Source: a virus
Lineage: Duplodnaviria > Heunggongvirae > Uroviricota > Caudoviricetes
Length of the DNA: 10,940 nucleotides
IMG/VR virus record: IMGVR_UViG_2703718840_000001
Coordinates: 1-10,940 of that record
Direction: 5' to 3' (one strand)
Shown here one piece after another: positions 1-10,433 of this stretch (positions within the stretch are counted from its first letter, which is position 1; every line of letters begins with the position of its first letter). The notes under the pieces were generated by a model. That model was not told the DNA's origin, made no database searches, and worked only from the letters and a program-made list of their open reading frames with translations. A program made the translations under genes and the position numbers.

Positions 1-862
1 GGAGCTGGACTTTGAAACCATTCTTGCCGAACGCAAGGCGACACTGATTTCCCTTTACCCGGAAGACCAGCAGGAGGCGGTCGCCCGTACCCTGACGCTG
101 GAATCTGAGCCTCTCGTCAAACTGCTGGAGGAAAATGCTTATCGTGAGCTTATCTGGCGTCAGCGTGTGAATGAGGCCGCACGGGCGGTGATGCTGGCCT
201 GTGCCGCCGGTAATGACCTTGATGTGATTGGTGCCAATTACAACACCACGCGCCTGACTATCACCCCGGCAGATGATTCGACCATCCCGCCGACACCGGT
301 AGTGATGGAGTCTGACACCGATTATCGTCTGCGTATTCAGCAGGCGTTTGAAGGTTTAAGCGTCGCCGGGTCGGTGGGGGCCTATCAGTATCATGGTCGC
401 AGTGCTGACGGGCGTGTCGCGGATATCTCTGTCACCAGTCCGTCTCCTGCCTGCGTCACCATCTCCGTGCTGTCACGTGAAAATAACGGTGTCGCATCCG
501 AAGACCTGCTGGCTGTGGTGCGTAACGCCCTTAATGGTGAGGACGTCAGGCCGGTGGCTGACCGTGTGACCGTGCAGTCTGCCGCCATTGTTGAATACCA
601 GATAAACGCCACGCTTTACCTTTACCCTGGCCCCGAAAGCGAACCCATTCGCGCTGCCGCCGTGAAAAAACTGGAAGCGTACATCACAGCACAGCACCGG
701 CTGGGGCGTGACATCCGTCTGTCTGCCATTTATGCCGCTTTGCATGTGGAAGGTGTGCAGCGTGTCGAACTGGCTGCACCACTGGCCGACATCGTGCTCA
801 ACAGTACGCAGGCGTCTTTCTGTACCGAATACCGCGTCGTGACCGGAGGCTCGGATGAGTGA
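1..862 (+). CDS. J: Baseplate assembly protein J (P2 gpJ-like), 5' end lies upstream of the window
   Basis: Frame beginning at nt 2 is open from the window edge (ELDFETILAERKATLISLYPEDQQEAVARTL...) and runs into the listed ORF 167-862. The protein is recognised as near-identical to phage P2 gpJ, which is about 300 aa, so roughly 15 N-terminal residues are missing. The stop overlaps the start of the next gene (ATGAGTGA at 855-862). Confidence 0.92.
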   Translation, partial: ELDFETILAERKATLISLYPEDQQEAVARTLTLESEPLVKLLEENAYRELIWRQRVNEAARAVMLACAAGNDLDVIGANYNTTRLTITPADDSTIPPTPVVMESDTDYRLRIQQAFEGLSVAGSVGAYQYHGRSADGRVADISVTSPSPACVTISVLSRENNGVASEDLLAVVRNALNGEDVRPVADRVTVQSAAIVEYQINATLYLYPGPESEPIRAAAVKKLEAYITAQHRLGRDIRLSAIYAALHVEGVQRVELAAPLADIVLNSTQASFCTEYRVVTGGSDE

Positions 863-1395: not shown

Positions 1396-3618
1396 ATGAG
1401 CACAAAATTCAGAACCGTTATCACCACTGCCGGTGCAGCAAAGCTGGCAGCGGCAACCGCACCGGGAGGGCGGAAGGTCAACATTACCACGATGGCCGTC
1501 GGGGATGGCGGTGGTAAATTACCTGTCCCGGATGCCGGACAGACCGGGCTTATCCACGAAGTCTGGCGACATGCGCTGAACAAAATCAGTCAGGACAAAC
1601 GAAACAGTAATTATATTATCGCAGAGCTGGTTATTCCGCCGGAGGTGGGCGGTTTCTGGATGCGAGAGCTTGGCCTGTACGATGATGCGGGAACGTTAAT
1701 TGCCGTGGCGAACATGGCCGAAAGTTATAAGCCAGCCCTTGCCGAAGGCTCAGGGCGTTCGCAGACCTGCCGCATGGTCATCATCGTCAGCAGTGTGGCC
1801 TCAGTGGAGCTGACCATTGACACCACAACGGTGATGGCAACGCAGGATTACGTTGATGACAAAATTGCAGAACATGAACAGTCACGACGTCACCCTGACG
1901 CCTCGCTGACCGCAAAAGGTTTTACTCAGTTAAGCAGTGCGACCAACAGCACGTCTGAAACACTGGCCGCAACGCCGAAAGCGGTAAAGGCCGCGTATGA
2001 CCTTGCTAACGGGAAATATACCGCACAGGACGCCACCATAGCGCGAAAAGGCCTTGTCCAGCTCAGTAGTGCCACCAACAGCACGTCTGAAACACTGGCC
2101 GCAACGCCGAAAGCGGTAAAGGCAGCATATGACCTTGCTAACGGGAAATACACTGCACAGGACGCCACCACAACGCGAAAAGGCCTTGTCCAGCTCAGTA
2201 GCGCCACCAACAGCGATTCTGAAACGCTGGCCGCAACGCCAAAGGCGGTAAAAGCAGCATATGACCTTGCTAACGGGAAATATACCGCACAGGACGCCAC
2301 CACAGCGCGGAAAGGCCTTGTCCAGCTCAATAGTGCCATCAACAGCGATTCTGAAACGCTGGCCGCAACACCAAAAGCAGTGAAGTCTGCCTATGACAAT
2401 GCTGAAAAACGTCTTCAGAAAGATCAGAACGGTGCGGATATTCCTGATAAAGGACGTTTTCTGAGTAACATTAATGTTTACAGCAAAGGTGAAGTGGATA
2501 AGAAAAAGGGAATGCGAAAGTATTCGTTTGCAGCCCCTGCAAATGTCGTTGCCGGGAAGTGGTATCCCGTTATCTTTCGCCGTGCTGCCAGCCTTTCAGG
2601 AGAAATGGCATCCCGCGTCGTTATTTCCACTGGTTGTTATAACGGCGATTATGTAATGAATAACTGCGAGTTTAATGGCATGGTTATGCCCGGAGGATGG
2701 ACTGATCGTGGTTCATATGCGGCAGGTTATTTCTGGACGTATCAGACCAATGAGCGTTCAATCCATTCCATTGTTACAAGCCTGAAAGATGATGATGTAT
2801 GTAGTGTTTTTTATGTTGAAGCCAGAGCTTTCCCTGTGCAAATTCTTGCAGAGGAAGGGCTAACGGTTATTGTTCCGACAGAGGATTATGTCGTCGGTCA
2901 AACGACATATAAGTGGGGGGCAACTAATCCCGCTACAGAAAGCACGAACGCACAGGCTATTCTGGATTTTAAAAATGGGCGCGGTTATTACTGCTCACAT
3001 CCATTTATTTCCAACCTTTCAGGAAATGCTGCAACAGCCTCAAAACTCGAAACACCGAGGAAAATAGCAGGTGTTGCCTTTGATGGTTCTGGAGATATTA
3101 CCCTTAATGCCAGAAATGTCGGTGCATTTGCACTTCGGCAGACAGGTAATACGGTTAATGGTGATACAGCCGTGGGATGGAATTGGGACAGTGGCGCATA
3201 CAACGCTCTGATTGGGGGAGCATCTGCATTAATTCTTCACTTTAATATAAATGCTGGTAGCTGCCCGGCTGTACAGTTTCGTGTGAATTATAAAAATGGC
3301 GGTATATCTTACAGGTCAGCCCGTGATGGTTATGGTTTTGAATCTGGCTGGTCTGATTTCTATACCACAACACGAAAACCATCAGCGGGAGATGTTGGTG
3401 CATACACCAAAGCTGAATCAGATTCTCGCTATGTCCGGGATATTCGCCTGGGCACTCGTGTTGTTCAGACCATGCAGAAAGGAGTGATGTATGAGAAAGC
3501 AGGGCACGTAATTACAGGGCTTGGTATTGTCGGTGAAGTCGATGGTGATGACCCCGCAGTATTCAGACCAATACAAAAATACATCAATGGCACATGGTAT
3601 AACGTCGCACAGGTGTAA
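1396..3618 (+). CDS. H: Tail fibre protein H (P2 gpH-like), with internal 44-aa tandem repeats and a divergent distal (receptor-binding) part
   Basis: 740-aa ORF preceded by GAGG (1388-1391). The N-terminal ~170 aa (MSTKFRTVITTAGAAKLAAATAPGGRKV...) and the extreme C-terminus (...YEKAGHVITGLGIVGEVDGDDPAVFRPIQKYINGTWYNVAQV) match P2 gpH as I recall it. The middle and distal part is AT-rich and contains a motif (NAATASKLETPRKIAGVAFDGSGDITLNA) that I recall as typical of side-tail-fibre proteins. Confidence 0.92.
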   Translation: MSTKFRTVITTAGAAKLAAATAPGGRKVNITTMAVGDGGGKLPVPDAGQTGLIHEVWRHALNKISQDKRNSNYIIAELVIPPEVGGFWMRELGLYDDAGTLIAVANMAESYKPALAEGSGRSQTCRMVIIVSSVASVELTIDTTTVMATQDYVDDKIAEHEQSRRHPDASLTAKGFTQLSSATNSTSETLAATPKAVKAAYDLANGKYTAQDATIARKGLVQLSSATNSTSETLAATPKAVKAAYDLANGKYTAQDATTTRKGLVQLSSATNSDSETLAATPKAVKAAYDLANGKYTAQDATTARKGLVQLNSAINSDSETLAATPKAVKSAYDNAEKRLQKDQNGADIPDKGRFLSNINVYSKGEVDKKKGMRKYSFAAPANVVAGKWYPVIFRRAASLSGEMASRVVISTGCYNGDYVMNNCEFNGMVMPGGWTDRGSYAAGYFWTYQTNERSIHSIVTSLKDDDVCSVFYVEARAFPVQILAEEGLTVIVPTEDYVVGQTTYKWGATNPATESTNAQAILDFKNGRGYYCSHPFISNLSGNAATASKLETPRKIAGVAFDGSGDITLNARNVGAFALRQTGNTVNGDTAVGWNWDSGAYNALIGGASALILHFNINAGSCPAVQFRVNYKNGGISYRSARDGYGFESGWSDFYTTTRKPSAGDVGAYTKAESDSRYVRDIRLGTRVVQTMQKGVMYEKAGHVITGLGIVGEVDGDDPAVFRPIQKYINGTWYNVAQV
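1918..2400 (+). repeat. In-frame tandem repeat array, 132-bp unit (44 aa), about 3.6 copies, inside tail-fibre gene H
   Basis: Direct reading: units start at about 1918, 2050, 2182 and 2314 (for example ACGTCTGAAACACTGGCC at 1951 and again at 2083). The peptide GLVQLSSATNS(T/D)SETLAATPKAVKAAYDLANGKYTAQDATTARK recurs. Copies 1-2 share the NSTSETL variant and copies 3-4 the NSDSETL variant. Confidence 0.93.
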
Positions 3619-3621
3619 TTT

Positions 3622-4149
3622 ATGCAGCATTTAAAAAATATTACTGCGGGTAATCCAAAAACTGTTGCCCAATATCAACTGACAAAAAATTTTGATGTTA
3701 TCTGGTTATGGTCCGAAGAGGGAAAAAACTGGTATGAGGAAGTAAGTAATTTTCAGGAAGAGACGATAAAGATTGTTTACGACGAGAATAATATAATTGT
3801 CGGCATCACCCGAGATGCTTCAACGCTTAACCCTGAAGGTTTTAGCGTTGTCGAGGTTCCTGATATTACTGCCAACCGACGTGCTGATGACTCAGGTAAA
3901 TGGATGTTTAAGGATGGTGCCGTGATTAAGCGGATTTATACGGCAGACGAACAGCAGCAACTGGCAGAATCACAAAAGGCAACTTTGCTTTCCGAAGCAG
4001 AATCCGTGATTTTGCCGCTGGAGCGCGCTGTCAGGCTGAATATGGCAACAGATGAGGAACGCAGCCGACTGGAAGCATGGGAACGCTACAGCGTTCTGGT
4101 CAGCCGTGTGGATCCTGCAAATCCTGAATGGCCGGAAATGCCGCAATAA
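3622..4149 (+). CDS. G: Tail fibre assembly protein/chaperone (P2 gpG-like, Tfa family)
   Basis: 175-aa ORF immediately downstream of H with AGGTG at 3611-3615. The C-terminal half (...[38 protein letters not shown]) resembles the conserved end of tail-fibre assembly proteins. Length and position match P2 gene G. Confidence 0.88.
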
Positions 4150-4370: not shown

Positions 4371-4964
4371 ATGTTTACTAAGCGACGATTAAAAAATATT
4401 AACTGGGAGGCAAGTTCAGTGATTCTTGCTATGGTTCTCTTTGTTGGAAATATATTTTATACAAATCATCGTGATGATATAAGCATGGAGGCTGAGAGAG
4501 ACAGTATCAGAACAATGTTTGCATATGAAATCGCTAATAACCATCGCGCTCTCACTTTTCTTGATAAAACGAGAAATATTGGCTTTGACGAAAATTCGGA
4601 GCATTTTGTTGGCGAGCCTTTTGCCATTAATGTCGAATCATTAGGAGGGCCTCGCTTACAGATTGCATTAAACCAGACTGATAAAGTTTTTAAAGCCTAC
4701 TTCAGTGAATTAAGTAAACTTGATAAAGAGGATGTTACTCTTCTTATGGACTATTACCATGAGCAAAGCATCCTGCTGGAGTGTGTAAAATCTACGTTAC
4801 AGAAGATGAAAGGTAATAATGATATTAAAGTTGATATTGATGGTTACTTATTAGAAGAACACTTCATGAATGAGTTTAATCTTTCTAATATTTTGCTTAA
4901 ACGCTATAGCCATTTGTTGTCACAACACCTCAAAAAACCCGAAACAAAGGATTTACATAATTGA
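4371..4964 (+). CDS. Hypothetical protein of the accessory insert between G and FI: predicted single-pass membrane-anchored protein, function unknown
   Basis: 197-aa ORF with AAGGTG (4361-4366) 4 nt upstream of the ATG. It is markedly AT-rich compared with the flanking tail genes. The N-terminus has a basic stretch (KRRLK) followed by a ~17-residue hydrophobic segment (SSVILAMVLFVGNIFY), suggesting an N-in signal anchor. The rest is charged and likely helical, with no catalytic motif I recognise. Only one long ORF lies in this ~1.1 kb inter-module region. Confidence 0.7.
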   Translation: MFTKRRLKNINWEASSVILAMVLFVGNIFYTNHRDDISMEAERDSIRTMFAYEIANNHRALTFLDKTRNIGFDENSEHFVGEPFAINVESLGGPRLQIALNQTDKVFKAYFSELSKLDKEDVTLLMDYYHEQSILLECVKSTLQKMKGNNDIKVDIDGYLLEEHFMNEFNLSNILLKRYSHLLSQHLKKPETKDLHN

Positions 4965-5293: not shown

Positions 5294-6484
5294 ATGAGTG
5301 ACTATCATCACGGCGTGCAGGTGCTGGAGATTAACGACGGCACCCGCGTCATTTCCACCGTATCCACGGCCATTGTCGGCATGGTCTGCACGGCCAGCGA
5401 TGCAGATGCGGAAACCTTCCCCCTCAATAAACCGGTGCTGATTACCAATGTGCAGAGCGCAATTGCAAAGGCCGGTAAAAAAGGCACGCTGGCGGCATCG
5501 TTGCAGGCCATCGCCGACCAGTCAAAACCGGTCACCGTTGTCGTGCGTGTGGAAGACGGCACCGGCGACGACGAAGAAACGAAACTCGCGCAGACCGTTT
5601 CCAATATCATCGGCACCACCGACGAAAACGGCCAGTACACCGGACTGAAAGCCCTGCTGGCGGCGGAGTCGGTAACCGGTGTTAAACCGCGTATTCTCGG
5701 TGTGCCGGGGCTGGATACCAAAGAGGTGGCTGTTGCACTGGCATCAGTCTGTCAGAAGTTGCGCGCTTTCGGGTATATCAGCGCATGGGGCTGTAAGACC
5801 ATTTCCGAGGTGAAAGCCTACCGCCAGAATTTCAGCCAGCGTGAGCTGATGGTCATCTGGCCGGATTTCCTCGCATGGGATACGGTCACCAGTACCACCG
5901 CCACCGCGTATGCCACCGCCCGTGCGCTGGGTCTGCGTGCCAAAATCGACCAGGAGCAGGGCTGGCATAAAACGCTGTCCAACGTCGGGGTAAACGGTGT
6001 TACCGGCATCAGTGCCTCTGTATTCTGGGATTTGCAGGAGTCCGGCACCGATGCTGACCTGCTTAACGAGTCAGGCGTCACTACGCTGATTCGCCGCGAC
6101 GGTTTCCGATTCTGGGGTAACCGTACCTGCTCTGATGACTCGCTGTTCCTCTTTGAAAACTACACCCGCACCGCGCAGGTGCTGGCCGACACGATGGCTG
6201 AGGCGCACATGTGGGCGGTGGACAAGCCCATCACCGCAACGCTGATTCGCGACATCGTTGACGGCATCAATGCCAAATTCCGTGAGCTGAAAACAAACGG
6301 CTATATCGTGGATGCGACCTGCTGGTTCAGCGAAGAATCCAACGATGCGGAAACCCTCAAGGCCGGAAAACTGTATATCGACTACGACTATACACCGGTG
6401 CCTCCTCTTGAAAATCTGACCCTGCGCCAGCGTATTACCGATAAATACCTGGCAAATCTGGTCACCTCGGTTAACAGCAATTAA
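5294..6484 (+). CDS. FI: Contractile tail sheath protein (P2 gpFI-like)
   Basis: 396-aa ORF (MSDYHHGVQVLEINDGTRVISTVSTAIVGMV...) recognised as P2 FI. GGAG at 5282-5285. It is the first gene after the accessory insert, as in the P2 FETUD operon. Confidence 0.94.
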   Translation: MSDYHHGVQVLEINDGTRVISTVSTAIVGMVCTASDADAETFPLNKPVLITNVQSAIAKAGKKGTLAASLQAIADQSKPVTVVVRVEDGTGDDEETKLAQTVSNIIGTTDENGQYTGLKALLAAESVTGVKPRILGVPGLDTKEVAVALASVCQKLRAFGYISAWGCKTISEVKAYRQNFSQRELMVIWPDFLAWDTVTSTTATAYATARALGLRAKIDQEQGWHKTLSNVGVNGVTGISASVFWDLQESGTDADLLNESGVTTLIRRDGFRFWGNRTCSDDSLFLFENYTRTAQVLADTMAEAHMWAVDKPITATLIRDIVDGINAKFRELKTNGYIVDATCWFSEESNDAETLKAGKLYIDYDYTPVPPLENLTLRQRITDKYLANLVTSVNSN

Positions 6485-6496
6485 GGAGCCTGACCG

Positions 6497-7015
6497 ATGG
6501 CAATGCCGCGCAAACTCAAGTTAATGAACGTCTTTCTGAACGGCTACAGCTATCAGGGCGTCGCGAAGTCCGTCACGCTACCAAAACTGACCCGTAAGCT
6601 CGAAAACTATCGCGGTGCGGGGATGAACGGCAGCGCACCGGTAGACCTCGGCCTTGATGACGATGCGCTGTCAATGGAGTGGTCGCTCGGTGGCTTCCCG
6701 GATTCGGTTATCTGGGAGCTTTACGCCGCAACCGGTGTGGATGCCGTACCGATTCGTTTTGCAGGCTCTTACCAGCGCGACGATACCGGCGAAACGGTGG
6801 CCGTCGAGGTGGTCATGCGTGGACGTCAGAAAGAAATCGACACCGGCGAGGGCAAACAGGGAGAAGACACCGAGTCGAAAATCTCCGTGGTCTGCACCTA
6901 TTTCCGGCTGACGATGGACGGTAAGGAGCTGGTCGAAATCGACACCATCAACATGATTGAGAAGGTGAACGGCGTCGACCGGCTGGAGCAACACCGTCGC
7001 AATATCGGCCTGTGA
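6497..7015 (+). CDS. FII: Tail tube protein (P2 gpFII-like)
   Basis: 172-aa ORF (MAMPRKLKLMNVFLNGYSYQGVAKSVTLPKLTRKLENYRGAG...) recognised as P2 FII. AAGGAG at 6482-6487 overlaps the FI stop codon. Confidence 0.94.
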   Translation: MAMPRKLKLMNVFLNGYSYQGVAKSVTLPKLTRKLENYRGAGMNGSAPVDLGLDDDALSMEWSLGGFPDSVIWELYAATGVDAVPIRFAGSYQRDDTGETVAVEVVMRGRQKEIDTGEGKQGEDTESKISVVCTYFRLTMDGKELVEIDTINMIEKVNGVDRLEQHRRNIGL

Positions 7016-7071: not shown

Positions 7072-7347
7072 ATGAACAAAGAAAACGTCATTACCCTGGA
7101 CAAGCCGGTCAAACGTGGTGAGCAGGTTATCGAACAGGTCACGCTGATGAAACCTAATGCCGGGACGCTGCGCGGTGTCAGTCTGGCTGCGGTCGCAAAC
7201 TCCGAAGTCGATGCACTGATTAAAGTGCTGCCGCGCATGACCGCACCGATGCTGACCGAGCAGGAAGTCGCCGCGCTGGAACTGCCTGACCTTGTGGCGC
7301 TGGCCGGTAAGGTGGTCGGTTTTTTGTCGCCGAACTCGGTGCAGTGA
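7072..7347 (+). CDS. E: Tail assembly chaperone E (P2 gpE-like), zero-frame product
   Basis: 91-aa ORF (MNKENVITLDKPVKRGEQVIEQVTLMKPNAGTLRGVSLAAV...) at the expected position between FII and T. It ends at TGA 7345-7347, just after the slippery site. Confidence 0.9.
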   Translation: MNKENVITLDKPVKRGEQVIEQVTLMKPNAGTLRGVSLAAVANSEVDALIKVLPRMTAPMLTEQEVAALELPDLVALAGKVVGFLSPNSVQ

Positions 7348-7499
7348 CGTTTCCGAAAAATCTCTCGGTCGATGATCTGATGGCGGATGTGGCAGTGATA
7401 TTTCACTGGCCGCCATCAGAACTGTATCCCATGAGCCTGACCGAACTCATCACATGGCGCGAAAAGGCGCTCCGGCGAAGCGGAAACACGAATGAGTAA
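7072..7499 (+). CDS. E+E': Tail assembly chaperone E+E' produced by programmed -1 ribosomal frameshift (joined 7072-7325 / 7326-7499)
   Basis: After a -1 slip on T-TTT-TTG (7320-7326) the new frame reads VAELGAVTFPKNLSVDDLMADVAVIFHWPPSELYPMSLTELITWREKALRRSGNTNE and stops at TAA 7497-7499, overlapping the ATG of T (7492). This matches the known P2 E/E' arrangement. Confidence 0.8.
7320..7326 (+). other. Slippery heptamer T-TTT-TTG, -1 programmed frameshift site for E+E'
   Basis: The heptamer is in the zero frame of E (codons GGT-TTT-TTG), 7 codons before the E stop. The -1 frame is open for 58 further codons to the start of T. Confidence 0.8.
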
Positions 7500-9939
7500 C
7501 AATGTAAAATTACAGGTATTGCTCAGGGCTGTTGACCAGGCATCCCGCCCGTTTAAATCCATCCGCACAGCGAGCAAGTCGCTGTCGGGGGATATCCGGG
7601 AAACACAAAAATCACTGCGCGAGCTGAACGGTCAGGCATCCCGTATTGAGGGGTTCCGCAAGACCAGTGCACAGCTCGCCGTGACTGGTCAGGAACTGAA
7701 AAAAGCCAGACAGGAAGCCGCAGCACTGGCTGTCCAGTTTAAAAATACTGAACGACCAACAAATGCACAGGCAAAGGCAATGGAAGCCGCGCGTAAAAAT
7801 GTGTCGGAGTTACAGGCGAAATATAACAGCCTGAGATTGTCGGTACAGCGCCAGCGTCAGGAACTGAGTCAGGCGGGTATTAATACCCGTAATCTGGCGC
7901 ATGATGAACGAGGGCTGAAAAACCGTATCAGTGAAACCACCGTACAGCTTAACCGGCAGCGTGACGCGCTGGCGCGTGTCAGTGCGCAACAGGCAAAACT
8001 TAACGCAGTAAAACAGCGTTATCAGGCCGGAAAGGAACTGGCCGGTAATATGGCCTCAGTGGGCGCTGCCGGTGTGGGGATTGCTGCTGCGGGAACGATG
8101 GTCGGAGTTAAGCTGCTGATGCCCGGTTATGAGTTTGCGCAGAAAAACTCAGAATTGCAGGCCGTGCTAGGAGTGGCAAAAGACTCCGCCGAAATGACCG
8201 CACTCCGCAAGCAGGCGCGCCAGCTCGGCGACAATACCGCAGCCTCGGCAGATGATGCAGCCGGTGCACAGATTATCATTGCGAAAGCGGGTGGAGATGC
8301 TGCGGCTATTCAGGCGACAACGCCGGTCACGCTGAATATGGCACTGGCGAATCAGCGGTCGATGGAAGAAAACGCGCAACTGTTGCTGGGGACTAAGGCA
8401 TCCTTTCAACTGTCAAATGATGATGTCAGCCATGTGGGCGACGTGTTGTCGGCAACGATGAATAAGTCGGCGGCTGATTTTCAGGGACTCAGTGATGCAC
8501 TGACTTACCTCGGGCCGGTTGCGAGGACTGCAGGTGTAAGTCTTGAGCAGGCAGCAGCCATGACAGGTGTGCTGCATGACAATAACATCAGGGGGTCAAT
8601 GGCGGGGACGGGTAGCAGTGCCGTTGTCACCCGATTACAGGCACCGACTGGAAAAGCATGGGATGCACTCAAAGAGCTTGGCGTTAAAACCTCGGACAAA
8701 AAGGGAAATATGCGTCCGTTGTTCACCATTCTGAAAGAGATTCAGGCCAGCTTTGATAAACACAAGCTGGGAACGTCTCAGAAGGGGGAATACCTTAAAA
8801 CCATTTTTGGTGAGGAAGCCCTGAAATCAGCGAACGTTTTACTGGCAGCGGCAGCAAGCGGAAAACTGGATAAGCTGACCGCCACGCTGAAAGCCTCGGA
8901 CGGTAAAACGGAAGAGCTGGTTAAAATCATGCAGGATAACCTCGGCGGTGACTTTAAGGCGTTTCAGTCCGCTTATGAGGCGGTGGGGACAGACCTGTTT
9001 GACCAGCAGGAAGGCACACTGCGTAAGCTCACGCAGACGGCCACAAAGTATGTGTTAAAACTCGACGGCTGGATCCAGAAAAACAAATCACTGGCGTCAA
9101 CCATCGGCCTCATTGCCGGTGGCGCGCTGGCGCTGACTGGCATCATCGGTGCCATTGGTCTTGTAGCCTGGCCGGTTATCACCGGCATCAATGCCATTAT
9201 CGCGGCAGCAGGCGCAATGGGAGCAATCTTCACGACGGTTGGCAGTGCTGTTATGACGGCCATCGGGGCGATTAGCTGGCCGGTTGTGGCCGTGGTGGCC
9301 GCCATTGTCGCCGGGGCGTTGCTTATCCGTAAATACTGGGAGCCTGTCAGCGCATTCTTTGGCGGTGTGGTTGAAGGGCTGAAAGCGGCATTTGCGCCGG
9401 TGGGGGAACTGTTCACGCCACTTAAGCCGGTGTTTGACTGGCTGGGCGAAAAGTTACAGGCCGCGTGGCAGTGGTTTAAAAACCTGATTGCCCCGGTTAA
9501 AGCCACCCAGGACACCCTGAACCGTTGCCGTGACACGGGCGTCATGTTCGGGCAGGCACTGGCTGACGCGCTGATGCTGCCGCTTAATGCGTTCAACAAA
9601 CTGCGCAGCGGTATTGACTGGGTACTGGAAAAACTCGGCGTCATCAACAAAGAGTCTGACGCACTTGACCAGACCGCCGCCAGAACTCAAGCCGCCACGT
9701 ATGGCAGCGGTGGTTATATTCCGGCGACCAGCTCTTATGCAGGTTATCAGGCTTATCAGCCGGTCACGGCACCGGCTGGCCGCTCTTATGTGGACCAGAG
9801 TAAAAACGAATATCACATCAGCCTGACGGGTGGTACTGCGCCGGGGACACAGCTCGACCGCCAGTTACAGGATGCGCTCGAAAAATACGAGCGGGATAAA
9901 CGTGCGCGCGCCCGTGCCAGCATGATGCATGACGGTTAA
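7492..9939 (+). CDS. T: Tail tape measure protein (P2 gpT-like)
   Basis: 815-aa ORF with a coiled-coil-like, Q/R/A-rich N-terminal part and a Gly/Ala-rich hydrophobic segment (LIAGGALALTGIIGAIGLVAWPVITGINAIIAAAGAMGAI...) typical of tape measure proteins. The start overlaps the E' stop. The sequence is recognised as P2 gpT. Confidence 0.93.
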   Translation: MSNNVKLQVLLRAVDQASRPFKSIRTASKSLSGDIRETQKSLRELNGQASRIEGFRKTSAQLAVTGQELKKARQEAAALAVQFKNTERPTNAQAKAMEAARKNVSELQAKYNSLRLSVQRQRQELSQAGINTRNLAHDERGLKNRISETTVQLNRQRDALARVSAQQAKLNAVKQRYQAGKELAGNMASVGAAGVGIAAAGTMVGVKLLMPGYEFAQKNSELQAVLGVAKDSAEMTALRKQARQLGDNTAASADDAAGAQIIIAKAGGDAAAIQATTPVTLNMALANQRSMEENAQLLLGTKASFQLSNDDVSHVGDVLSATMNKSAADFQGLSDALTYLGPVARTAGVSLEQAAAMTGVLHDNNIRGSMAGTGSSAVVTRLQAPTGKAWDALKELGVKTSDKKGNMRPLFTILKEIQASFDKHKLGTSQKGEYLKTIFGEEALKSANVLLAAAASGKLDKLTATLKASDGKTEELVKIMQDNLGGDFKAFQSAYEAVGTDLFDQQEGTLRKLTQTATKYVLKLDGWIQKNKSLASTIGLIAGGALALTGIIGAIGLVAWPVITGINAIIAAAGAMGAIFTTVGSAVMTAIGAISWPVVAVVAAIVAGALLIRKYWEPVSAFFGGVVEGLKAAFAPVGELFTPLKPVFDWLGEKLQAAWQWFKNLIAPVKATQDTLNRCRDTGVMFGQALADALMLPLNAFNKLRSGIDWVLEKLGVINKESDALDQTAARTQAATYGSGGYIPATSSYAGYQAYQPVTAPAGRSYVDQSKNEYHISLTGGTAPGTQLDRQLQDALEKYERDKRARARASMMHDG

Positions 9940-9953
9940 GGAGGTGACGAAAA

Positions 9954-10433
9954 ATGATGCTCGCGTTAGGTATGTTTGTTTTTATGCGCCAGACGCTGCC
10001 ACACCAGACCATGCAGCGTGAATCAGATTATCGCTGGCCGTCAAATTCCCGTATCGGTAAACGGGATGCCTACCAGTTTCTCGGCGTTGGCGAGGAAAAC
10101 ATGACGCTGGCCGGTGTGCTTTATCCCGAACTGACCGGCGGCAAGCTGACGATGACCACGCTCAGGCTGATGGCAGAGGAAGGTCGGGCGTGGCCGTTGC
10201 TGGATGGCACCGGCATGATTTACGGCATGTATGTCATCAGCAGGGTGAGTGAAACAGGGAGTATTTTCTTTGCAGACGGCACACCCCGAAAAATTGATTT
10301 TACGCTGTCGCTCACCCGCGTTGACGAATCACTGGCCGCGCTTTATGGCGATATCGGTAAACAGGCGGAATCGCTCATCGGTAAGGCCGGCAGTCTGGCG
10401 ACCAGATTCACAGGTATGACGGGGGCGGGATAA
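9954..10433 (+). CDS. U: Tail protein U (P2 gpU-like)
   Basis: 159-aa ORF (MMLALGMFVFMRQTLPHQTMQRESDYRWPSNSRIGKRDAYQF...) with AAGGAGG at 9938-9944. It follows T as in P2, and its TAA stop overlaps the next ATG (TAATG at 10431-10435). Confidence 0.92.
   Translation: MMLALGMFVFMRQTLPHQTMQRESDYRWPSNSRIGKRDAYQFLGVGEENMTLAGVLYPELTGGKLTMTTLRLMAEEGRAWPLLDGTGMIYGMYVISRVSETGSIFFADGTPRKIDFTLSLTRVDESLAALYGDIGKQAESLIGKAGSLATRFTGMTGAG

Follow-up and report, generated by a model that had tools for sequence, protein, structure and literature searches.

The tail fibre gene H in the window (the whole 10,940 nt stretch of viral DNA analysed here) carries four tandem copies of the phage tail fibre repeat PF03406. 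The array is old and its copy number rarely changes; it probably serves as a spacer, built of modules, in the proximal shaft of a trimeric P2-type fibre. The 132 bp in-frame array occupies positions 1918–2403, and comprises three full units of 44 residues followed by the 30-residue core of a fourth (Table 1). Tandem Repeats Finder detected it at 1936–2397 (period 132, 3.5 copies, 90% matches, no indels, score 721), as the sole tandem repeat of the window. This result, together with the register of the units in the frame of the H ORF, agrees with the first-pass annotation of the sequence, which had placed about 3.6 units of 44 residues at 1918–2400. The unit sequences also have the order described there, two copies of an NSTSETL variant followed by two of an NSDSETL variant (T-T-D-D).

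Table 1. Features of gene H and its neighbour G in the window
Feature	Position (nt)	Strand	Extent and evidence	Sequence
Gene H, P2-type tail fibre protein, 740 aa	1396..3618	+	ORF; Pfam PF12571, PF03406 (four matches), PF12604	
N-terminal tail-collar / baseplate-attachment domain	1396..1848	+	aa 1-151; PF12571, E = 1.4e-58	
Repeat unit 1	1918..2049	+	aa 175-218; variant NSTSETL	GFTQLSSATNSTSETLAATPKAVKAAYDLANGKYTAQDATIARK
Repeat unit 2	2050..2181	+	aa 219-262; variant NSTSETL	GLVQLSSATNSTSETLAATPKAVKAAYDLANGKYTAQDATTTRK
Repeat unit 3	2182..2313	+	aa 263-306; variant NSDSETL	GLVQLSSATNSDSETLAATPKAVKAAYDLANGKYTAQDATTARK
Repeat unit 4, core only	2314..2403	+	aa 307-336; variant NSDSETL	GLVQLNSAINSDSETLAATPKAVKSAYDNAEKRLQ...
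Linker	2404..2475	+	from aa 337; ends at the boundary between constant and exchangeable parts	EKRLQKDQNGADIPDKGRFLSNIN
Distal receptor-binding region, related to the Mu S′ tail-fibre tip	3109..3612	+	aa 572-739; phmmer against PDB	
Gene G, tail fibre assembly chaperone pairing with the H C-terminus	3622..4149	+	PF02413 Caudo_TAP, E = 1.2e-34	

Unit 1 opens with GFTQL, a 5′ edge peculiar to the first unit, and unit 4 retains only the first ~28–30 residues of the repeat before continuing into the linker. PF03406 ('Phage tail fibre repeat', Phage_fiber_2) matched four stretches of H (E = 4.1e-81, 266.8 bits), exceeding its curated gathering score of 22 bits, and the best stretch spanned model positions 1–41 of 42. 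The four contiguous 44-residue units at aa 175–336 likewise conform to the tandem tail fibre units of about 40 residues that make up this family. An antisense ORF at 1926–2342 (138 aa, TTG start) lies wholly inside the array, opposite the well-supported gene H, and was dismissed as a probable effect of the sequence periodicity.

The units had been described as nearly identical. This is true of the protein, in which units 1–3 show 91% identity to unit 1, but not of the DNA, in which the full units differ at 12–21 of 132 positions, with third codon positions dominating. Unit 2 differs from unit 1 by 15 nt and from unit 3 by 12 nt. The T and D variants are distinguished by a whole codon, switched from ACG to GAT in both units 3 and 4. 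Pairwise comparison of the window's units gave 8–12 synonymously and 2–4 non-synonymously differing codons; because the differences are mostly at synonymous sites, each unit appears to be under purifying selection.

Gene H as a whole is mosaic: an N-terminal domain for attachment to the baseplate is followed by the repeat array, a linker and a distal part that binds the receptor. The first-pass annotation had placed the array between a conserved N-terminal domain and a divergent distal part, and the Pfam matches confirm this, with PF12571 at aa 1–151. The N-terminal domain is constant across the lineage; against P2 gpH it is 95–100% identical in each 20-residue block, with one block at 90%. 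Its homology to the corresponding domain of P2 gpH places H among P2-type gpH proteins, and the window has the P2-type gene order: J-I-H-G, then FI and FII for the tail sheath and tube. Pfam names Tail_P2_I and Caudo_TAP occur in the window, and both a colinear E. coli prophage and P2 are annotated with matching gene order. Between G and the sheath gene downstream lies an ORF on the + strand that is unrelated to a fibre invertase or alternative fibre part.

Identity profiles showed that identity to other distal classes drops from ~100% to ~20% across H aa 341–360. The linker motif NGADIPxKxxFxxNI(G) is common to all the distal classes compared, and the H linker aligns to residues ~145–172 of the Mu tail fibre protein S. 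The boundary between constant and variable parts of H corresponds to the position of the gix site in Mu S. No match to the gix sequence used as query was found in the window at up to three mismatches. An invertible segment of the Mu G, P1 C or e14 P type was considered and rejected for this window, which lacks a gix match, an invertase gene and a second, inverted version of the distal fibre part. Further downstream, H aa 572–738 align to residues 318–486 of 8JU3_A (phmmer against PDB, 208.8 bits for the stretch), and PF12604 (gp37_C) matches aa 592–677. Proteins 98.9% identical to H are encoded by three IMG/VR contigs (L067, L070 and L078). By homology to Mu S/S′ and P2 G, gpH would form a trimeric fibre which binds its receptor through the C-terminal part and needs gpG for assembly.

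Repeat units were counted in a survey of 103 related loci, in 101 of which H was found; the HMM used for counting was derived from the four units of the window. Unit 1 of the window is identical to unit 1 of several two-copy and four-copy arrays. The nearest neighbours of unit 2 elsewhere are unit 2 of other four-copy arrays; for unit 4, 29 of 30 nearest neighbours are unit 4 of other four-copy arrays, the remaining one being the fifth unit in an array of five. Units at the same position in different loci differ on average by 3.1–7.1 nt over the 75-nt core and by 6.3–10.9 nt over 132 nt, compared with 10.7–20.1 nt over the core and 15.6–25.3 nt over 132 nt (three full units) for units at different positions. 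Differences between positions are equal within a locus and between loci (for example 14.5 versus 14.6), and comparison of units within and between loci gave no sign of homogenisation within arrays. Orthologues of all four positions can be recognised in 53 four-copy arrays, and the T-T-D-D order was found in 43 arrays, which belong to several distal-domain classes with no relationship at the 70% identity level. Because this order is common to so many arrays, and units are orthologous position by position and are not homogenised, the array is an old tandem duplication, ancestral and stably inherited, that arose long before this prophage split from its relatives. The occurrence of T-T-D-D across distal classes, with position-specific orthology, further indicates that the duplications predate the diversification of the phages that carry the array. 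On these comparisons the array is part of the constant proximal module in a large group of Escherichia/Yersinia peduovirus fibres.

The first-pass annotation had instead taken the AABB pattern to suggest successive local duplications that lengthened this fibre, in an array prone to recombination and able to vary between isolates. On that reading a recent expansion in this lineage doubled A and then B, and the locus is actively unstable. The codon switch common to units 3 and 4, and the difference of just 2 nt between units 1 and 2 within the core (nt 22–75), would suit such a history, but the divergence of the full units over 132 nt speaks against it, and their 3′ parts are mosaic, unit 1 being nearer to unit 3 than to unit 2, which does not fit two clean recent duplications. 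Position-specific orthology in the 53 four-copy arrays without homogenisation, and a T-T-D-D order that spans distal classes, also stand against it. The excess over P2, which has two copies to the window's four, is also in its favour, as are exact in-register runs of 29–50 bp between units and a few loci with near-identical neighbouring units (L020 and L016) or with one unit more or fewer than their class. Against it, copy number is nearly constant within each distal class: within the largest uniform classes it is the same in 20/21, 17/18, 9/9, 8/8, 8/8 and 6/6 members. A recent, lineage-specific expansion is therefore very unlikely, and is already largely refuted for this window.

Across the surveyed loci with H the copy number ranges from 1 to 5, and it reaches 6 in database homologues; other fibres have arrays of up to 12 units. 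Copy number is thus not invariant across the lineage that includes P2. Among close relatives (80 IMG/VR contigs with an H N-terminal domain at least 99% identical to that of the window) the array has four copies in 52, two in 17, five in 8 and three in 3; four copies is the commonest state, which could partly reflect sampling of one successful E. coli prophage lineage, as the 80 loci are phylogenetically non-independent. The proposal that this fibre has undergone an unusual expansion is accordingly not supported, as four copies are modal in its closest relatives and are found in P22H4 as well. Variation in copy number, which had been anticipated, does exist between loci, but change within a distal class is rare, with three clear cases: L017 and L082 have five copies in a class with four, and L042 has three in a class with five. 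With copy number constant within classes and no homogenisation of units, the array does not behave as a contingency or hypervariable tandem-repeat locus. Unequal recombination between units, as the first-pass annotation supposed, is possible because of the exact in-register runs, and it would change the copy number occasionally; a second route would be recombination that brings in a distal module with its own terminal unit.

Collapse or inflation of the copy number during assembly, through the 132 bp repeats, is extremely unlikely and is excluded as far as comparison allows. One uninterrupted segment of the complete E. coli UPEC-245U/190328 genome is colinear with the entire 10,940 nt of the window, and the matching 2,223-nt CDS is annotated there as 'tail fiber protein'. 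Of 5,426 complete E. coli genomes, 405 (about 7%) match the array query colinearly over 80% or more of its length, and independently sequenced phages are colinear through the array, P22H4 having the same four units. What speaks for an artefact is that many database homologues are 'partial' and end at contig ends, so that gene H is often a break point in short-read assemblies. Yet the array should be resolvable with ordinary reads, because its units differ at 9–16% of DNA positions, enough for reads to be placed.

A further reading is that the repeat cores serve mainly as conserved recombination 'splice sites', providing short stretches of DNA homology between otherwise unrelated fibres (P2 H, Mu S and lambdoid Stf) at which distal modules are exchanged, the copy number being a by-product of crossovers. 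The homology between P2 and the window is indeed lost inside unit 2, and near-equal units are found in Mu S and in fibres with quite different N-terminal domains (the lambdoid Stf-type P0122 and P0123). The array profile found 4,070 protein clusters at E ≤ 0.001, and related distal domains are joined to 1, 2, 3 or 4 units in different genera. Most distal classes in this lineage, however, diverge not in the repeat but ~20–25 residues past the last core, behind the linker motif, and all units are under purifying selection, which implies a function at the protein level. We therefore regard exchange at the repeat cores as an unlikely explanation of the array. It is compatible with the units acting as a shaft spacer, and does not exclude that explanation.

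In the shaft, the array has on one side the N-terminal domain, which docks on the baseplate, and on the other the exchangeable receptor-binding part. As a spacer, each 44-residue unit would add one structural module to the shaft, and the number of units would set the distance of the receptor-binding tip from the baseplate. AlphaFold2 monomer models gave a mean pLDDT of 42.1 for aa 151–380 without an alignment and of 43.9 for aa 150–400 with a 34-sequence alignment; such low values are expected for a single chain of a trimeric fibre, and both models were unusable. In a search with a profile of eight units, the only solved chains that carry the repeat were Mu S and S′. The structure literature on Mu S/S′ yielded no statement on the order of Mu S residues 118–161, the P2 pseudotyping literature no discussion of the gpH repeat, and a literature search on fibre repeat copy number versus fibre length nothing relevant. 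A survey of repeat families published in 2021 (PMC8078820) lists PF03406 as lacking a solved structure.

The unit number may also be functionally tuned rather than historical, although we consider this doubtful. The 4–5 units of Escherichia/Yersinia peduoviruses, as against 1–3 in most other enterobacterial genera, would then match how far the fibre extends to how deep its receptor lies (for example, LPS core under O-antigen). Purifying selection on every unit and the stability of copy number within classes are compatible with tuned reach, and the joining of related distal domains to 1–4 units would fit a neutral history equally well. If reach were tuned, selection could act on copy number as a determinant of host range, and it could be engineered while the receptor-binding tip is left unchanged.

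The four-copy array is an ordinary feature, because PF03406 is catalogued and four old, stable copies are the commonest state in close relatives. Beyond annotation it matters little, belonging to a catalogued family and occurring both in sequenced phages and in E. coli (about 7% of complete genomes). For fibre engineering, the boundary between constant and variable parts of H, at about aa 355, offers a natural place to join the parts of a chimeric fibre.

That P2-type fibres are mosaics has been clear ever since H of P2 was first sequenced (Haggård-Ljungquist et al. 1992, as cited in PMC12143355), and gpH of L-413C is also a mosaic (PMC7460101). Translation of P2 gpH (NP_046775, 669 aa) showed two copies, one full unit and one core, fewer than in the window, as the first-pass annotation had stated. 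P2 gpH has the matching position I-H-G and is 90–100% identical to the window's H per 20-residue block over aa 1–220; unit 1 differs from that of the window at 2 of 132 nt. The C-terminal ~55 residues are also P2-like, with 65, 80 and 95% identity in the last three 20-residue blocks, and G, the chaperone, shows 90% identity to its P2 counterpart gpG. P2 differs in having two units rather than four, and its unit 2 runs into another linker (AVKTVMDETNKKAPL...) and an unrelated distal part. P2 is a shorter, two-copy variant rather than the norm, and fibre designs based on P2 gpH therefore lack two of the shaft units present in most natural relatives.

Peduovirus P22H4 (NC_049385) and Escherichia phage 9W (OM475431) are colinear with the window, with 96.9% identity over nt 1–2058 of H. 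Translated, P22H4 has the same four units in T-T-D-D order and a distal domain that matches up to aa ~686, but the last ~55 residues of its H and its chaperone (76% identical to G of the window) are of another type.

Mu S and S′ (5YVQ, 8JU3 and 9KI1) resemble H in having a PF03406-type unit followed by a matching linker (GLVQLTSATDSPSETLAATAKAVKIAMDNANARLAKDRNGADIP; repeat residues 118–161). Mu S has one unit, compared with four in H, and a different N-terminal attachment region. Mu switches the distal part of its fibre by inverting the G segment.

The lambdoid Stf-type fibres P0122 and P0123 contain nearly identical units, GIVQLSSDTNSTSETLAATPKAVKAAYDLANGKYTAQDATTTQK, in tandem in the fibre shaft. 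Unlike H, these long-array fibres have 7–11 units (12 in the N-terminally truncated P0121), which alternate with a longer variant unit (..AAGKAPSSHTHPWNQITGVPTASLTAK), and in their N-terminal domains P0122 and P0123 bear no relation to gpH. PF03406 itself, known in InterPro as the lambda Stf side-tail-fibre repeat-2, occurs in the same context as in the window, as tandem copies in a tail fibre shaft; all four units of the array fit the family model end to end, and nothing essential differs.

Judged from its sequence, the window comes from a P2-like (Peduovirus) prophage, of which it is the tail module; genes were assigned from an ORF list, from Pfam matches and from how a colinear E. coli prophage is annotated. 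Tandem Repeats Finder detected a single tandem array in the window, at 1936-2397 (period 132, 3.5 copies, 90% matches, 0 indels, score 721). It lies within the tail fibre gene H, and the repeat units keep register in that ORF. The tandem array reported in the fibre shaft by the first-pass annotation is therefore real. It is in frame, with the attachment domain on one side and the exchangeable tip on the other, and the Pfam matches in H identify the repeat unit as a member of a catalogued family. Residues 572-738 of H align, at 208.8 bits over this segment, to the tip of the Mu S' tail fibre (PDB 8JU3), and counterparts of the H protein at 98.9% identity were found on three IMG/VR contigs. An antisense ORF entirely inside the array (1926-2342, minus strand, 138 aa, TTG start) was taken not as a gene, but as a by-product of periodic, stop-free sequence.

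Genes of the window, Pfam domains of H and units of the repeat array
Feature	Window position	H residues	Strand	Remarks
I	855-1385
H	1396-3618			740 codons
PF12571		1-151		N-terminal tail-collar domain; Pfam
PF03406 'Phage tail fibre repeat'		four stretches		Pfam, E = 4.1e-81
gp37_C		592-677		Pfam
Unit 1	from 1918	from 175	+	full, 44 residues
Unit 2	from 2050	from 219	+	full, 44 residues
Unit 3	from 2182	from 263	+	full, 44 residues
Unit 4	from 2314	from 307	+	first ~28-30 residues only, then linker
G	3622-4149			tail fibre assembly chaperone
ORF of unknown function	4371-4964		+	197 aa
FI	5294-6484			sheath
FII	6497-7015			tube
E/E'	7072-7499
T	7492-9939			tape measure
U	9954-10433
D	from 10433			start only

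An ORF of 197 aa separates the chaperone gene G from the sheath gene FI, in the interval where P2 has the non-essential fun(Z) gene. It matches phrog_3829 ('unknown function') over its full length, and neither Pfam nor PADLOC gave a match to it. For other E. coli prophages matching the whole window, a Shedu nuclease, an S1 peptidase or a 'lysogenic conversion protein' is among the features listed under the match, perhaps at this position. The ORF may be accessory cargo.

The possibility that the array is an assembly artefact was dismissed by comparison with complete genomes. The chromosome of E. coli UPEC-245U/190328 matches the window from end to end as a single colinear segment, likewise 10,940 nt long, with the same 2,223-nt tail fibre CDS annotated, and among 5,426 complete genomes of E. 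coli, 405 match at least 80% of window 1780-2540 colinearly. UPEC-245U/190328 is also the best whole-window match in this set, at only 95.5% identity, against 98.9% for the nearest H proteins of IMG/VR contigs, so the complete genomes do not include the source genome. Many database homologues of H are 'partial' proteins cut at contig ends, and draft assemblies thus often break in H, but nothing points to such a problem here.

The order of variants within the array is NSTSETL, NSTSETL, NSDSETL, NSDSETL, the AABB pattern that the first-pass annotation had described and read as successive local duplications. Units 1-3 have 91% protein identity to unit 1, but their DNA is less alike than the protein suggests: full units differ at 12-21 of 132 positions, mostly at third codon positions, with 8-12 synonymous and 2-4 non-synonymous codon changes. 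In the core (nt 22-75), units 1 and 2 differ by only 2 nt and units 3 and 4 by 8. The 3' parts form a mosaic in which unit 1 is nearer to unit 3 than to unit 2. This pattern of core and 3' parts fits old duplications blurred by occasional exchange, rather than two clean recent ones.

The age of the array was examined by computing nucleotide differences between units across 53 four-copy arrays. Units at the same position in different loci differ on average by 3.1-7.1 nt in a 75-nt core and by 6.3-10.9 nt over 132 nt, whereas units at different positions differ by 10.7-20.1 and 15.6-25.3 nt respectively (the latter for full units only). The different-position figures are equal within one locus and between two (for example, 14.5 and 14.6), indicating that there is no concerted evolution and that the four positions predate the divergence of these phages. 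Elsewhere, the units nearest to units 1, 2 and 4 of the window are overwhelmingly those at the same position; unit 3 is about as near to position 2 as to position 3 in other arrays. The variant order of the window recurs in 43 arrays, on several distal domains unrelated at 70% identity. Recent expansion is thus not borne out, the four positions being orthologous across loci; the array is under purifying selection and stably inherited.

For the copy-number survey, relatives were sought with the N-terminal domain of H alone, so that copy number would not bias the sample, and units were counted with an HMM built from those of the window. Among 80 IMG/VR loci with an N-terminal domain at least 99% identical, 52 have four units, 17 two, eight five and three three. 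Of 23 further loci from GTDB species representatives, 21, from other species and genera, have one to four units, mostly one to three (H was not located in two), and P2-H-type proteins in the protein database have up to six. Copy number is therefore not invariant across the lineage including P2, and yet it rarely varies within one fibre type. When fibres were grouped by the exchangeable part distal to the array, counts were nearly constant inside each class, with three clear exceptions: five copies against four in L017 and, in the window's own class, L082, and three against five in L042. With a looser threshold, related distal domains were joined to one, two, three or four units in different genera. 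A few loci contain near-identical pairs of full units (no differences in L020, one in L016), indicating recent duplication or conversion there. Adjacent and full-unit pairs of the window have exact in-register runs of 29-50 bp in common, so unequal homologous recombination is possible in principle.

Compared with other distal classes, identity is ~100% through the array and linker, and is lost around aa 355 (boundary region: window 2440-2480, H aa ~349-362), just behind a motif common to all distal classes, NGADIPxKxxFxxNI(G). This places the array in the constant proximal module. In Mu S, the residues at this place, FIQNLGLQ, are encoded by the gix crossover site at which inversion occurs. 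No gix-like match with up to three mismatches and no invertase gene were present in the window. In a Phytobacter homologue (L085, 4001+), the boundary sequence TTTGTACAAAACATCGGTTTACAGAA looks close to gix. The boundary in H may be a relic of invertible-segment ancestry.

Beyond the boundary, H is a three-way mosaic (window 3109-3618 and 3622-4149 were considered). Its distal domain (aa ~355-686) belongs to the type found in P22H4 and 9W and has a Mu S'-like tip, and its final ~55 aa resemble P2. With P2 gpG, the chaperone G shares 90% identity, with the P22H4 chaperone only 76%. The C-terminus of the fibre seems to have been exchanged together with its chaperone, as a single block.

Each unit would add one module to the structure of the trimeric shaft, and the number of copies would then set how far the fibre reaches. 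Two monomer structure predictions of the array region were of very low confidence (mean pLDDT 42-44). The only solved chains with the unit in their sequence are those of Mu S/S', and PF03406 was still among the repeat families without known structure in a 2021 survey (PMC8078820).

A profile of the four window units matched 4,070 protein clusters (E <= 0.001) among 1.84 billion representatives. Near-identical units occur in arrays of 6-12 copies in other tail fibres (P0121, P0122, P0123 and P0125); the N-terminal domains of two of these, P0122 and P0123, are of lambdoid Stf type and not related to that of gpH. In these arrays, 44-aa units and copies of a 66-aa variant (..AAGKAPSSHTHPWNQITGVPTASLTAK) take turns, forming a super-repeat of two units. 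Their arrays look much more recently expanded than that of the window, in which four copies are unremarkable.

Translated P2 gpH has one full unit plus a core, two in all and fewer than the four in the window, as the first-pass annotation had correctly stated. DNA identity between P2 and window H stays at 62-66 of 66 per block as far as aa 220, drops to 58 of 66 and after that to 23 of 66, so that homology breaks inside unit 2; the second-unit core of P2 is not particularly near to any window unit. Mu S has one copy of the unit seen in window H, with the same linker behind it. Over nt 1-1059 of H, array included, the window is colinear with Yersinia phage vB_YpM_46 and several others, and Peduovirus P22H4 and Escherichia phage 9W match it colinearly (96.9%) across the array and over most of the distal part, the P22H4 fibre having the same four units as the window and in the same order. 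The array thus represents a known repeat family in its most frequent arrangement, and is old, not a new expansion.
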